DNA of 32,775 nt from Acidobacteriota bacterium (GCA_046723495.1 JBKOUP010000528.1:1-32775); one strand, 5' to 3'; positions 1,873 to 21,135 are shown, counted from the stretch's first letter. The notes: generated from the sequence alone by a model not told the origin. Numbers and translations: made by a program.

Positions 1873-1938
1873 TTAGTTCTTGGTTCTTAGTTCTTAGTTT
1901 GCATCCCGACCAACTAAGAACTAAGAACCAAGAACTAA
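1873..1938. repeat. Heptamer-tandem hairpin (TTCTTAG/CTAAGAA); probable bidirectional terminator
   Basis: Perfect 27-bp inverted repeat 1873-1899/1912-1938 with a 12-nt loop, between convergent genes. It contains the lptE stop codon (1935-1937). Confidence 0.92.
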
Positions 1939-2453
1939 AAACCCTCCAAAAGATTCGTCACCAGCGTCGACGCAAAGCGCACGGCGATCTCCCGGATCGC
2001 GCGCGTCTCCTGGTCGAAGGCGTCCGTCGACTCCGTGTTCGTCTGGTAGTTCTCGGTGAAGCGGTACTGGTCGTTCTTCCACAGCACCTTGTCGTCGGCG
2101 CGGTGGTCGACGAGCTCGATGTTCGCGGTGATGGCCACCTGGTACTGCGTGGCCCGGCCTTGGGCATTGAAGGCGATGGGGAAGATGCCGAAGCTGTCGA
2201 TCGAGCCGCGCAGGATCACGTCGGCCTCGGCCGGCACGGTGACGAGGCGGAGGCGGCCGCGCGACACGAACTCGTCGGCCACCGCCTGCGTCACGCGCTG
2301 CTCCAGCTCCACGCGCGTCGTGCGGTTCACGAAGGCCGGCACCTGGATCGTGTGCACCGTGGGCGGGAGCAGGTTCTGGGCCCGCCCGACCAGCGTGTAG
2401 CCGCAGGCCGTGGCGATCAACCAACAGCCTGCGGCGGCGAGGGCGTGCTTCAT
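1935..2453 (-). CDS. lptE: LPS assembly lipoprotein LptE
   Basis: MKHALAAAGCWLIATAC-GYTL lipobox, IQVPAFVNRT motif and position downstream of leuS. ATG 2453 overlaps the upstream stop (ATGA); the longer track ORF is spurious upstream of this. Confidence 0.85.
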   Translation of the reverse strand: MKHALAAAGCWLIATACGYTLVGRAQNLLPPTVHTIQVPAFVNRTTRVELEQRVTQAVADEFVSRGRLRLVTVPAEADVILRGSIDSFGIFPIAFNAQGRATQYQVAITANIELVDHRADDKVLWKNDQYRFTENYQTNTESTDAFDQETRAIREIAVRFASTLVTNLLEGF

Positions 2454-3238
2454 CGCTTGTAGGTCACGTGCACGGCCAGGTCGTCGAGGTTCTTCTTCTT
2501 CGACATGGCCTCGAACTTCTCCATGTCGTACTCCCAGATCAGCGTCTGCCCTTCCTGGCGCGTGGCGTTGGAGGAGACAACTTTGAACGGCGCGGTGATG
2601 CGGTAGGTCACGCGCATCTTCTTGAAGGCGTCCTTGATCATCTTCTCCGTCTCGGGATCGGCCGGCGGTCCGCCGCCTTCCTTCTTCTCCTCCTGCACCT
2701 TCTCGCTCGGATTCTGCGGCTTGGTGCGGATCGTGACCAGGTCGCCCTTCTCCACGACTTCGAGCCCTTCGAACGGCGTGTCGATCACGCTCTTCTTCGT
2801 CGGGTCTTCGCTCTTCGCCGAGGGCAGCTTCACACCGACGAGATGGCTGAGCTTGTCGAAGCCGAACTTGAAGTAGGTGTCGACGCCGAAGTCGGCCTCC
2901 TTGGCATCGAAGGAGATCAGCTTCACGCCCGGCGGCAGACCTTTCTCGACGTCTTCTTTCTTCGGTTTCTCGCCGGAGTCGGCCTTGGCGGTGCTCTTCT
3001 TCGCCGACTTCTTGAACTCGGCCTTGGCCTTGGCGATCTCCTCGGGCGGGACCGGGCCGGTCTTCCCTTCCATGGAGCGGCCGACCTGGGCCATGATCAC
3101 GACCATCGGCTCCATGTCGATGCCGAGGTGAAAGTCGGCGGTGCCGGACATGTCGGACTTCAGCGTGATGGCGTTGTCGATCTGAAAACAGCCGCACAGC
3201 AGCAAAAGAATAGAGAGGGCGACGCTCTGTTTTTTCAT
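2450..3238 (-). CDS. Hypothetical lipoprotein (LppM/DUF3153-like)
   Basis: Lipobox LLLCGC; ITLKSDMSG start and VVSSNAT...TLIWEY end resemble LppM-like proteins. ATGA-coupled to leuS and lptE. Confidence 0.7.
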   Translation of the reverse strand: MKKQSVALSILLLLCGCFQIDNAITLKSDMSGTADFHLGIDMEPMVVIMAQVGRSMEGKTGPVPPEEIAKAKAEFKKSAKKSTAKADSGEKPKKEDVEKGLPPGVKLISFDAKEADFGVDTYFKFGFDKLSHLVGVKLPSAKSEDPTKKSVIDTPFEGLEVVEKGDLVTIRTKPQNPSEKVQEEKKEGGGPPADPETEKMIKDAFKKMRVTYRITAPFKVVSSNATRQEGQTLIWEYDMEKFEAMSKKKNLDDLAVHVTYKR

Positions 3239-19207: not shown

Positions 19208-20020
19208 TCAGAACCCCACGGCGATCTTCGCGGCGTAGCTGCGCACCTCCGCCTGCGTCACCTCGATGACGATCTTCGGACCGGGGATCGAAAAGCGGAC
19301 GCCGGCGGTGTAGCGGTTGATGTTGCTGCGGTCGTCGAGCGTGAACGTCGACGTCGACGTCGTCACCGTGCCGGTGGCATTCGTCCGCTGCCGTCCGACC
19401 GCGGCGTACGGCGTGAGCGGGCCGAATCCCTTGCTGATGAAAAGCTCCAGGCCGTAGGTCTTCAGCTTGTACACGTCGATGCCGCTGATCGTGGCGTAGG
19501 AGCCGCGCGCGGCGAGCTCCGGCGTCACCACCGAGCCGCGCACGACCGGCACGTCGATCGCGCCGCCGTACGCCTTCACGTCGCTGTTCTGGATCTTCGC
19601 GTAGGTCCCCGAGACGGTGGCGAAGCCGAGGCCTTTGCTGGCCACGAGGCGCGGCACGGCCGCGTAGCCGCCGCCGGTGAGGAAGTCGTTGTTGGCCGGG
19701 ACGGCATGGCGCCACCACGAGGCGTTCTGGTCGATTTTGACGAGCGTCGCGGCCACGCCGACGTTGAAGCCGAGGAGGCCGGAGGCGCGTGCCGGCTCGA
19801 CGGGCGTGGCGAAGATGGCCTGCCCCATCGTGCGCGAGAACTGCGCGAACTCCTCCTGCGTCGTGGCCGGATTGAACTCGATGTCCTGCGCGCCGAGCGG
19901 CAGGGCGATCAAAAAAGCTGCGAGAGATAGGAGTTGCTGAGCAGAAATCCGGCCGGCGTGAAGGCCACGCGCGCTCCGTCGCGCCGCAGCCAGCCATCGT
20001 CTAATCCTCGTGCCATCCAT
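19208..20020 (-). CDS. Putative outer-membrane beta-barrel protein
   Basis: Signal-like LLSLAAFLIALPLGA-Q, alternating amphipathic strands and a terminal Phe (IAVGF). SD GAGGAGG lies 7 nt before ATG 20020. Confidence 0.72.
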   Translation of the reverse strand: MDGTRIRRWLAAARRSARGLHAGRISAQQLLSLAAFLIALPLGAQDIEFNPATTQEEFAQFSRTMGQAIFATPVEPARASGLLGFNVGVAATLVKIDQNASWWRHAVPANNDFLTGGGYAAVPRLVASKGLGFATVSGTYAKIQNSDVKAYGGAIDVPVVRGSVVTPELAARGSYATISGIDVYKLKTYGLELFISKGFGPLTPYAAVGRQRTNATGTVTTSTSTFTLDDRSNINRYTAGVRFSIPGPKIVIEVTQAEVRSYAAKIAVGF

Positions 20021-21078
20021 TCGATGCCCTCCTCACCACACAGGTGCACGACGTCATCGTAGTCGATCCCGGCGTTCTGCCGGAGGCGGAGAAAGAGGGT
20101 CTCGCGGCGCTGCTCGGCGGGGCCGAGGGACTCGTCGAGCTCGGGGCCGCGCGCGCCAGCGATGTAGCGGCCGAGGTCGCGCGTGTTGGCGAAGCGGCGC
20201 TCGGCGAGGAACGAATGCGCGGCCAGGCCGAAGCCGAGATAGCTCTGGCGGCGCCAATATCTGAGGTTGTGCAGGCAGGGGTCGCCGAAGTTGCTGATCT
20301 CGTACTGGGCCAGGCCGGCGGCGTTGAGGCGATCGATCGCTTCGACATAGAGCGAGGCGACGTCGTCCTCGTCGGGCAGCGGCGTGCCGCGGCGGGCCAG
20401 CGCGCTCCCCTCCTCGAGATCGAGCATGTAGAGGGAGAGGTGGCCGGCGCCGCTGGCAATGGCGAGGTCGAGGGTCTGGCGAAAGGACTCCGGCGTCTGG
20501 CTCGGCAGACCGAGGATGAGGTCGAGGCTCGTGCGGACGCCGCCGGCGACGGCGTCGCGGAGCGCGGCGAGAGCGCGCTCGCGCCCGTGCACGCGGCCGA
20601 GGGGACGGAGCTCGGCATCGTGGAACGACTGCACGCCGATGCTGAGGCGGTTGACGCCGAGGGTTTTCCAGAAGTCGATGGCGTCCGGCGTCACGTCCTC
20701 GGGATTGGCTTCGAGGGAGAACTCGGGCCCCGTCATCCTGAGCCGCGACGACGGCGAAGGATCTCCGAATGGCAACGACGTCGCAGCCTGAGATCCTTCG
20801 TCGCGCTTCGCCGACTCAGGATGACGCGGGGACTCGAAGTCGAAGCCGGCACGCAGCGCGGCGACGACGCGCGTCAGGTTCTCGGGTGACGTCCGCGACG
20901 GCGTGCCCCCGCCGAAGAAGATGGTCTCCACCGCCTCCCCCGTCGCGCGCTCCTCGATCTCGCGGACAAGCGCCGCCGTGTAGTCGTCCTGCAATCCGAT
21001 CTTCGTTGAGACGGCGAAGGCGCAGTAGGCGCAGTGGACGCGGCAGAACGGGAGGTGGATGTAGATGCCGGTGGCCAT
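19909..21078 (-). CDS. hemW: HemN-like radical SAM heme chaperone, carrying an in-frame palindromic insertion
   Basis: YIHLPFCRVHCAYC, FFGGGTPS, EANP, NRLSIGVQSF, YEISNF and HNLRYW (HNxxYW). In-frame alternative start ATG 21135. Confidence 0.9.
   Translation of the reverse strand: MATGIYIHLPFCRVHCAYCAFAVSTKIGLQDDYTAALVREIEERATGEAVETIFFGGGTPSRTSPENLTRVVAALRAGFDFESPRHPESAKRDEGSQAATSLPFGDPSPSSRLRMTGPEFSLEANPEDVTPDAIDFWKTLGVNRLSIGVQSFHDAELRPLGRVHGRERALAALRDAVAGGVRTSLDLILGLPSQTPESFRQTLDLAIASGAGHLSLYMLDLEEGSALARRGTPLPDEDDVASLYVEAIDRLNAAGLAQYEISNFGDPCLHNLRYWRRQSYLGFGLAAHSFLAERRFANTRDLGRYIAGARGPELDESLGPAEQRRETLFLRLRQNAGIDYDDVVHLCGEEGIEWMARGLDDGWLRRDGARVAFTPAGFLLSNSYLSQLF
20731..20826. repeat. 96-nt nested palindromic element (RPE/REP-like) inside hemW
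   Basis: Outer perfect 12-bp IR cgtcatcctgag/ctcaggatgacg; inner perfect 11-bp IR cgaaggatctc/gagatccttcg. Confidence 0.9.
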
Positions 21079-21135
21079 GCGGAATGCAGAATGCAGAATT
21101 GCTCCGCTTCTAATTCTGCATTCTGCATTCTGCAT
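21077..21135. repeat. Heptamer-tandem hairpin (GCAGAAT/ATTCTGC), second copy
   Basis: 24-nt arms 21077-21100/21112-21135, 23/24 complementary, 11-nt loop; overlaps the hemW start codon. Confidence 0.92.

Follow-up and report, generated by a model that had tools for sequence, protein, structure and literature searches.

Short tandem repeats with a unit of seven nucleotides have been noted in bacterial genomes for decades, e.g. as the short tandemly repeated repetitive (STRR) sequences of cyanobacteria, the GGGAATC repeats of Xanthomonas, the 'global regulator sites' of Geobacter and the TAACTGA repeats of Beggiatoa, none of which comes with a mechanism. Heptamers also occur in the intervening sequence (IVS) of 23S rRNA. 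As described in the accessible part of PMC4990558, the IVS has a 28-bp stem of terminal inverted repeats with three to four tandem heptamers ahead of the open reading frame (ORF) for the protein S23p, the number of heptamers differs between strains, and RNase III cuts at the first repeat. S23p/IVS proteins are widespread and have no known function. Here, we analyse six heptamer hairpins in a stretch of 32,775 nucleotides, referred to as the window, from an Acidobacteriota bacterium (GCA_046723495.1 JBKOUP010000528.1:1-32775). The window is contig C493 of a 4.30-Mb assembly, G000 (530 contigs, 67.2% GC, 94% complete), i.e. a metagenome-assembled genome (MAG) of the Thermoanaerobaculia, and its closest FabF genes are all from Acidobacteriota MAGs labelled Thermoanaerobaculia. 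The hairpins are located at 1868..1942, 8204..8274, 13260..13334, 13919..13994, 16634..16729 and 21077..21136. We interpret them as gene-less members of a foldback class whose full form carries an S23p gene (PF05635) in its loop, i.e. elements of the same kind as the 23S rRNA IVS, but located in ordinary spacers, and we put the probability of this interpretation at roughly 60%.

PF05635 was searched for after one distant pair of arrays of the same family had been found to enclose a small gene. All five PF05635 genes of G000 lie beside heptamer arrays. For three of them both flanks are assembled, and the gene is enclosed by inverted arrays; the two others, which are located at contig ends, have an array on the one visible side. 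The five genes come with five units (AGGGGAC, AACTAAG, GAATTTC, CAGAAGG and GAGAGCC), and the polarity of the flanking arrays is that of the short hairpins of the same family. Arrays flanking S23p genes often encode the last residues of the protein together with the stop codon. PF05635 is present in 12 of 13 related genomes, and at 18 of the 30 S23p loci of the relatives an array of period 7 or 8 lies no more than 300 nt away; ten of these loci have inverted arrays of the same unit on both sides, in ten different units. Moreover, the dominant units of the sampled relatives are those that flank their own S23p genes (AACGATG, AGGGATC, AAGGATG and AAGAGCT). AAACCAG is most abundant in G016, and an S23p gene of that genome adjoins AAACCAG arrays; in G245 an S23p gene is enclosed by GAACGCA/GAATGAA arms.

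The association extends beyond the Acidobacteriota. Two cross-phylum samples of S23p loci, which overlap in part and are not fully independent, cover Planctomycetota, Verrucomicrobiota, Bacteroidota, Chloroflexota, Firmicutes, Proteobacteria, Elusimicrobiota and a lineage of the candidate phyla radiation (CPR). With a 10-sequence S23p alignment as query, flanking arrays were found at 23 of 80 loci, including six inverted pairs of the same unit; with a Lysobacterales S23p as query, flanking arrays were found at 37 of 78 loci, 14 of them being inverted pairs of the same unit. Taking both samples, 82 of 91 flanking arrays have period 7, and at 87 of 150 loci one flank contains a run of 12 nt or more that is exactly complementary to the other flank, as compared to none of 150 when one flank is shuffled. 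No Xanthomonas locus is among the 80 loci listed for the Lysobacterales query. The S23p protein of G000 itself matches PDB entry 2GSC from Xanthomonas campestris (E = 2.7e-22), which according to the available sections of the respective papers is a pentameric toroid (PMC4990558) and a homologue of Avd of diversity-generating retroelements (PMC10053308). As a side observation, the array following the S23p gene of a Kiritimatiellae locus (L322) has the unit CCCTAAC, which resembles the eukaryotic telomere repeat; the likeness is probably a coincidence.

The connection between S23p elements and short hairpins can be followed in two genomes of the same genus, G001 and G002, whose DNA is syntenic with the window and 83-87% identical to it. 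Both have an orthologue of the S23p element on contig C84 of G000. In G001 and G002 its arms are an irregular run of GAACGCA, the 6-mer GAATGC, GAATGCA and GAATTAA, and in G000 they consist of GAATTTC x3.7 with the sequences just inside the arms kept. The outermost arm unit of the G001/G002 element resembles GAATTTC, so that, in the simplest reading of these sequences, one variant unit would have expanded and the others would have been lost, in both arms. At the 21077 site, the gene-less hairpin of G001 agrees with the G001 S23p element in 37 of 40 nt at the left end and in about 41 of 46 nt at the right end (read by eye), including the 6-mer irregularity. The GAATGCA hairpin on contig C428 of G000, which belongs to a group of copies with a shared loop and is the only one of them that was aligned to an S23p element, aligns past its arm into the inner left end of the G002 S23p element, and its last two bases are those inside the right end. 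Finally, the spacer between an ABC ATPase gene and the gene of its permease holds an S23p-bearing element in G002 and a gene-less hairpin with another unit in G000. As the short hairpins thus share arm irregularities and, in part, loop ends with the S23p-bearing element, we regard them as gene-less derivatives. This continuity is seen for elements of the 21077 type; the other five elements of the window only share a unit family. All six are classed as gene-less derivatives and not as full members because their loops (11-30 nt) contain no ORF.

The heptamer units are not arbitrary. S23p proteins were sorted into subfamilies by a simple motif, and the unit was taken from the 5' arm. Among 65 heptamer units of subfamily 1, AGT is found in 33, as compared to 10.3 expected after shuffling of the letters of each unit, its complement in five and GAA in two, whereas GAA is found in 7/7 units of subfamily 2 (2.7 expected); the other four positions of the unit contain almost no information. 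The core of the unit (AGT/AGG or GAA) corresponds to the S23p subfamily and is invariably found on the 5' arm, which accounts for the fixed polarity of the elements. In the window, the hairpins at 13919, 16634 and 21077 are of the GAA type, those at 1868 and 8204 have AGT and AGG, respectively, and the one at 13260 has AGC. The initial annotation had considered a factor that recognises the structure, and, judged from the units, this part of its proposal appears plausible in that a 3-nt core is kept and follows the S23p subfamily.

Hairpins of this kind are abundant throughout the genome. When the whole 4.30 Mb was scanned with one rule for all periods (arrays of at least three copies), 297 arrays of period 7 were found, i.e. 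one per 14.5 kb, vs. 113, 24, 35, 30 and 1 of periods 4, 5, 6, 8 and 9. The idea that other periods might be equally common, which the initial annotation had raised against itself, clearly fails. Neighbouring arrays at most 80 nt apart are mutual inverted repeats in 71 of 71 cases for period 7 and in six cases for period 8, with no such case for periods 4, 5, 6 and 9; among the remaining 155 arrays of period 7, a weaker inverted partner exists for 111 and is missing for 44. A similar excess is found in 506 kb of related genomes that had been fetched for another purpose, with 38 arrays of period 7 as compared to 0, 0, 3, 0 and 0 of periods 5, 6, 8, 9 and 10. After merging, G000 contains 181 hairpins in at least 26 unit families, consistent with the earlier statement that they are not copies of one mobile element. 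The largest families are AACTAAG (48 copies), AAACCAG (28), AATGCAG (18), AGGGCGC (14) and AGAGCCG (11).

The anatomy of the hairpins is narrow in some respects and free in others. Arms have four units in 88 of 142 cases and five units in 42, overlap by a median of 27 nt and form stems with a median folding energy of -49.8 kcal/mol, 34 of 71 being perfect. Loops range from 4 to 56 nt (median 17) and have a genome-like GC content of 0.64. Either arm type can come first, as had been noted, if different families are compared; within a family, however, the polarity is constant, the unit of the first arm being AAACCAG in 24/24, CTTAGTT in 18/18 and GAATGCA in 13/13 copies. In 19 cases a non-consensus base has its mirror image in the opposite arm, where 0.4 would be expected, and in 61 cases it has none. 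Together with the new left arm at the 16634 site described below, this supports copying from arm to arm or selection for pairing. Moreover, several copies with unrelated loops have an identical odd unit at one and the same position of the arm, and we conclude that arms are inherited from templates and loops mostly are not. An exception is a set of eight GAATGCA copies, including the 21077 element, that have one common loop in either orientation. Stop codons in three frames were considered as the cause of period 7 and rejected, as AAACCAG and GAATGCA contain no stop triplet on either arm.

Gene positions were taken from a crude codon-usage gene caller (3,926 genes, 90.9% coding). The hairpins lie between same-direction (126), convergent (23) and divergent (16) genes, similar to the background (2392, 490 and 514). 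Spacers with a hairpin have a median length of 93 nt, 76 nt of which is the element, and ordinary spacers one of 16 nt; the median distance of a hairpin is 2.5 nt to a stop codon vs. 15.5 nt to a start codon. The closeness to codons is thus explained by insertion into spacers that are otherwise very short, i.e. about 16 nt. Two arrangements in G000 deviate from the simple hairpin. Five solitary arrays, on contigs C70, C164, C232, C446 and C507, have an identical variant pattern of one GTCCCCC followed by three GTCCCCT and no partner arm within 110 nt by the scan rule; the one on C507 is the right arm of the C507 S23p element. Three more arrays show the same pattern with GCGCCCC/GCGCCCT units. 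In addition, contigs C123, C278, C334, C364, C439, C413 and C416 contain composite hairpins, where AGTTCTT 7-mer arrays have 8-mer arrays of the same family (AGGTTCTT) outside or next to them, in an order that is sometimes not nested, making alternative pairings possible.

Units turn over in place, i.e. orthologous sites of sister genomes hold other units, no element or the S23p-bearing form. In the acpP-fabF spacer, 36 related loci comprise 11 heptamer hairpins with eight different units, 21 empty sites, one non-heptameric hairpin, one possible remnant and two unclear cases, and in the empty spacers the stop and start codons overlap or nearly do so. In a quick FabF tree all filled sites fall into one 25-row clade, where they are intermixed with empty ones, and the sister rows L027 and L028 carry different units. 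The 8204 site has hairpins of other units in the two same-genus genomes (AGGTCAC/GGGTGAC and GGGGCGC), with part of the loop kept in G002. At 13919 G001 is empty and both G002 and L006 are filled, with a loop related to that of the window. At 16634, where the window has a full hairpin, G001 and G002 have only an array resembling the 3' arm, as coding sequence of a lipoprotein signal peptide, i.e. in the window a new left arm faces an older array that the sister genomes carry alone. The 21077 site has three regular units in the window, an irregular version in G001 and four regular units in G002, and the full hairpin at 13260 corresponds to a single unit in G001 and to a remnant and another repeat in G002; the contigs of a further relative omit 13275-13349. 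Conversely, the spacer at 5731-5749, which is empty in the window, holds a hairpin in G001 and a decayed hairpin in G002. At this place, G002 has about nine tandem 27-nt units after the decayed heptamer hairpin (G002:C228 ~3720-3950, locus L093), as compared to a spacer of 19 nt in the window.

On a wider scale, three tandem copies of AAACCAG occur in 7 of 41 related genomes (88 matches in G000, 247 in G016) and in neither same-genus genome, and three tandem copies of AATGCAG are present in 4 of 301 genomes taken from across the phylum. The earlier claim that period and shape are kept while the sequence changes is therefore true even at a single orthologous site. We attribute this persistence to the existence of many S23p-type families and to the turnover of units in place. 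As the same elements are found at the same sites in separately assembled related genomes, an assembly artefact is an unlikely source of the hairpins; the four sequencing runs that were checked contain relatives only, at about 90-93% identity and as contigs, not the reads of this strain. Direct repeats of the TAACTGA type are present at two Terriglobia loci, i.e. also in Acidobacteriota (L041 5609-5634 and L074 5616-5648); this unit is known from Beggiatoaceae, cyanobacteria and Bacteroidetes, as listed in the accessible text of PMC4679880.

Based on these observations, we propose that the full-length form carries in its loop the S23p gene, whose product, the '23S rRNA intervening-sequence protein', is a homologue of the pentameric Avd ring. 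An arm comprises about four tandem heptamers (28-32 nt), each with a 3-nt core and four free positions. At one orthologous site, units are replaced over time and the neighbouring sequence stays as it was; the likely route is that one variant unit expands, the others are lost and the arms are made symmetrical. The perfect stems of about 30 bp may be transcribed within operons and, by analogy with IVS stems, be cut by RNase III, a gene for which is present in G000; such cutting would separate or destabilise neighbouring cistrons. The S23p ring, in turn, may bind the core triplets of the 5' arm and compete with folding. The combination of a triplet core, a 4-nt spacer, four to five repeats and a ring of five subunits suggests that one unit would be read per subunit. 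Extending this, we tentatively speculate that S23p/Avd-like pentameric rings read tandem heptamers in a sequence-specific manner (3-nt core and 4-nt spacer, one unit per subunit, four to five per ring), and that each subfamily with its cognate hairpins forms a self-propagating element as well as a regulon that acts post-transcriptionally through tens to hundreds of intercistronic stems in many phyla; we regard this generalisation as possible, yet doubtful. Ring proteins that read spaced triplets are known, namely TRAP and HutP, and the proposed reading of heptamers by S23p would resemble their mode.

Several observations weigh against the link to S23p or against parts of it. No S23p gene with AAACCAG or exact GAATGCA arms is found in the fragmented G000 assembly, and at the S23p locus of G016 the second AAACCAG array, which lies at a contig end, has the same orientation as the first. 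By the strict rule, a tandem array is absent at 57/80 and 41/78 of the cross-phylum S23p loci. The array density per Mb follows the S23p copy number (0:0, 2:30, 3:35, 4:20, 5:69, 6:100, 7:88), but this trend rests on seven genomes, two of its samples (G008 and G026) include the S23p loci themselves, and its zero point, G028, is an organism with 37% GC. The agreement between core and S23p subfamily could result from shared descent and not from recognition, all seven units of subfamily 2 being from one bacterial order. Moreover, most loops are unique, e.g. 24 near-perfect AAACCAG copies have unrelated loops of 9-48 nt, so that a single deletion derivative that was then multiplied fits only the 8-copy GAATGCA subfamily with the shared loop. 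The origin of the loops was not found in two places where it was sought: they are not copies of local flanks (longest shared word on average 5.7 in direct and 6.2 in inverted orientation vs. 5.7 in permuted controls), and as guides or repeats from elsewhere in the genome they score barely above mononucleotide shuffles, save for loops that hold 8-mer arrays. Finally, S23p was judged to be probably not expressed in the one IVS studied in the part of PMC4990558 available to us.

Several explanations do without S23p. The hairpins might be a pure mutational by-product, in which slippage favours 7-nt units and quasi-palindrome correction copies the arms, with no dedicated factor and the repeats being neutral filler. 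Heptamers are indeed the commonest long simple repeat in many prokaryotes, for which slippage has been proposed (Mrazek 2007, cited in the accessible text of PMC4679880), orthologous sites do vary in copy number and unit, and mirrored variants exist. Independent slippage is, however, not expected to produce large families with identical units at dozens of loci, a constant polarity (55/55 in the three main families), a narrow copy number, recurrent subfamily variants and an association with S23p genes, and we therefore consider this explanation unlikely. A process in which 7-nt units are added at breaks by a telomerase-like enzyme or another templated polymerase, and in which the second arm arises through fold-back synthesis, would explain the constant polarity, as one unit type would be added to both 3' ends of the break, as well as the unique loops of genome-like composition. 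De novo addition would not, however, reproduce inherited irregularities that are identical in hairpins and S23p elements. In addition, no RVT_1 domain (PF00078) is found in the genome, an absence that a 94% complete MAG leaves unproven, and the copy number is tight. The templated 7-nt addition suggested in the initial annotation is thus not supported, and we regard it as highly improbable. Alternatively, the repeats could be double-stranded DNA sites for a nucleoid or global regulator that act on supercoiling or transcription and not as RNA, as was proposed for paired heptamer sites of Geobacter, with IHF/HU as a guess (Aklujkar et al., PMC2700814, accessible part). Most families are AT-rich in a genome with 67% GC, as such sites might be, but some are GC-rich (AGGGCGC with 14 copies, AGAGCCG with 11), the spacing of the arms ranges from 4 to 56 nt, and complementarity of the arms is kept, which independent binding sites do not need; this makes a DNA-level role quite improbable. 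As for intrinsic transcription terminators, the stems are stable and are located directly past stop codons. However, a TTTT run within 10 nt after the stem is present in only 5/172 cases, which argues against intrinsic termination, and many hairpins lie within one operon (ACP/KAS) or between divergent genes, so that we give this function next to no credence.

Known kinds of mobile elements do not account for the hairpins any better. Like repetitive extragenic palindromic (REP) sequences and their doublets (REPINs), which are spread by REP-associated tyrosine transposases (RAYTs, IS200-type Y1 transposases), the hairpins are intergenic palindromes with many copies per genome, and G000 does encode one RAYT-like ORF of 187 aa with an HxH motif (a weak match to PF01797, 26.5 bits; G000:C246:6048-6611, locus L098 1195-1758). 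No repeats lie beside this gene, i.e. inverted repeats of 14 nt or more are absent within 1.5 kb, a single gene would have to serve at least 26 unit families whose stems are tandem repeats and not imperfect palindromes of the REP type, and the AAACCAG family is wholly absent from the same-genus genomes. Classical MITEs (miniature inverted-repeat transposable elements) of a DDE transposon, with the heptamers of the terminal inverted repeats as binding sites for the transposase, would fit the shared-loop GAATGCA subfamily, which behaves like an amplified deletion derivative, and the patchy distribution of families among genera. Yet the sharp ends of AAACCAG copies show no target-site duplications (by eye), most loops are unrelated, and no transposase is found between distant arrays of the same family. 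An autonomous transposase element was rejected after 12 candidate distant array pairs had been considered, the inserts of which are S23p, ordinary genes and an ABC ATPase with a separate hairpin on each side. The defining features of MITE and REP/RAYT families are thus missing, and both origins are very unlikely. We continue to favour the derivation of the hairpins from S23p elements.

In the window, all six heptamer hairpins of the initial annotation were found at the places it gave. Tandem Repeats Finder detects period-7 arrays on either side of a loop at each site, and in an inverted-repeat scan the arms are 24-40 nt long with a complementarity of 80-100%. The window has no match in Rfam 15 at the gathering score. 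As had been stated, the elements lie at or within about 12 nt of a start or stop codon, and the genes around them are housekeeping genes, i.e. those for ABC1 kinase, LptE, SSB, MutS, ACP, KAS, a rhodanese lipoprotein and a radical-SAM enzyme. The description as much more AT-rich than the surroundings applies to four of the six (GC 0.36, 0.47, 0.49 and 0.43, flanks 0.65-0.68) and not to those at 8204 (0.59) and 13260 (0.67).

The hairpin at 1868..1942, with a 5' arm of AGTTCTT units (1868-1899), a 12-nt loop and a 3' arm of AACTAAG units (1912-1942), lies between convergent ABC1-kinase and LptE genes; it starts 1 nt past a TGA, and its last unit supplies the stop codon of LptE. Its family, AACTAAG, is the one with 48 copies in the genome, and this unit also follows the S23p gene at G000:C339. 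The arms at 8204..8274 consist of AGGGAAC/AGGTGAC units and are located between the genes for SSB and an HlyIII-family protein, beginning 5 nt past a TAG and ending 11 nt ahead of an ATG. The element at 13260..13334 (GCTCTCA/GCTCTCG arms, 11-nt loop) lies between the start codon of MutS, at a distance of 7 nt, and the stop codon of a 105-aa ORF, at a distance of 5 nt, both genes being on the minus strand. The one at 13919..13994, with GAATGCA x4.6 per arm, arms that are 100% complementary and a loop of 12-13 nt, occupies the whole spacer from the stop codon of ACP, a TGA that it overlaps, to the start codon of KAS. At 21077..21136 the hairpin has GAATGCA x3.3 and lies between divergent radical-SAM and HD-domain sensor genes; it overlaps a minus-strand start codon, and its loop is common to seven other copies in the genome.

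The hairpin at 16634..16729 (GAAAGCA/GAAATCA arms, 30-nt loop) overlaps a TGA, and its 3' arm is that part of a rhodanese lipoprotein gene which encodes the signal peptide; the start codon of this gene is likely the GTG at 16686 within the loop. A CTGCCTT-type heptamer array at 16686-16735, and in the G001 and G002 orthologues, encodes the hydrophobic core of the signal peptide together with the lipobox, i.e. repeat DNA has been taken into coding use. A further array in coding sequence, a lone one at 3704..3732 on the minus strand (CTTCTGC on the plus strand), is located in the variable loop of leucyl-tRNA synthetase, and its unit depends on the species, G002 having a lone array of GATCGCT at this site (G002:C228:1623-1649).

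Two more features of the window concern the genes beside the hairpins. In mutS (10559-13252, minus strand) a palindromic repeat of about 127 nt (11949-12077, arms 11969-12005 and 12025-12061) lies in frame; the matching point comprises about 35 nt in the same-genus genomes as compared to about 160 nt in the window, and those genomes carry the repeat in dozens of copies at other places. The repeat has the look of a palindromic element for which a location within coding sequence is tolerable. Next to the 21077 hairpin, a TATAAT box (within 21146-21163) ends 9 nt ahead of the ATG at which the HD-domain sensor gene starts, and no Shine-Dalgarno sequence lies between box and start codon, which suggests that the transcript may be leaderless or nearly so. 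Several other genes adjacent to hairpins also have no obvious ribosome-binding site.

Compared with other repeats, the hairpins resemble REP/REPIN elements in being intergenic palindromes with many copies. REP doublets form long hairpins and can act on mRNA stability; here, in contrast, the stems are tandem repeats, no conserved head of the REP type was seen, and the single RAYT-like gene is not flanked by hairpins. The foldback (FB) transposons of Drosophila also have inverted arms of short tandem repeats and central loops that differ between copies, but they are eukaryotic, kilobase-sized and of other periods, so that the analogy is one of form only. STRR, other long simple sequence repeats (LSSR) and TAACTGA repeats have period 7, an intergenic position near start codons and a suspected binding protein in common with our elements, also without a known mechanism; as presented in the accessible text of PMC4679880, they are mostly direct arrays of one unit, unlike the inverted pairs of many families found here. 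The cyanobacterial STRR, to which the initial annotation had pointed, are therefore only a loose relative, being direct arrays from another phylum.

Other described systems are closer. The paired sites of Geobacter metallireducens lie on opposite strands at variable distance, one pair being located between the genes of the proBA operon, and the heptamer MTYCTGA, which forms five tandem copies in one class, is complementary to the GAA-type units described here (Aklujkar et al. 2009, PMC2700814). They were interpreted as IHF/HU sites, and the available portion of that paper reports no association with a gene family. The GGGAATC repeats of Xanthomonas have mostly four units, form 70-75 convergent stem-loop pairs per genome, are intergenic, lie near the end of the upstream ORF and are not found at the same genes in different species (Rehm et al. 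2015, PMC4692102, accessible part). The hairpins of G000 share these features, i.e. about four units in convergent, intergenic pairs near the upstream stop codon, and the solved S23p structure, 2GSC, likewise comes from Xanthomonas (X. campestris). In contrast to the elements described here, the Xanthomonas repeats have a single G-rich unit and were studied as G-quadruplexes, and no link to S23p is drawn in the sections of PMC4692102 available to us. The architecture is thus in print for Xanthomonas, for Geobacter and, in the accessible text of PMC4990558, for the rRNA IVS, and it is not the undescribed system for which it was first considered a candidate. We found no paper that links dispersed heptamer hairpins to S23p, in a search that covered neither subscription journals nor the supplements of the Xanthomonas and Geobacter papers.

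The IVS is the closest counterpart. As far as the accessible part of PMC4990558 describes it, it shares with our elements an inverted-repeat stem of about 28 bp, tandem heptamers of varying number, an S23p gene in the loop of the long form, forms without ORF and the absence of a known transposase. It differs in location and number: all six elements of the window lie between protein-coding genes and not in helices of 23S rRNA, and the genome contains about 180 copies in many families, most of them gene-less. For annotation it matters that hairpins supply stop codons and C-terminal residues, sit in operons (acpP-fabF), can become signal-peptide coding sequence and break short-read assemblies. 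If reading by a ring were true, it would explain at once why heptamers are in excess in bacteria (STRR/LSSR), where rRNA intervening sequences come from and what free-standing Avd-like proteins do. Taken together, what appears to be new in comparison with these systems is that the dispersed heptamer hairpins are gene-less kin of S23p/IVS elements and that the core of their unit follows the S23p subfamily, a link that merges the puzzle of the bacterial heptamer repeats and that of the S23p proteins into one question testable at the bench.

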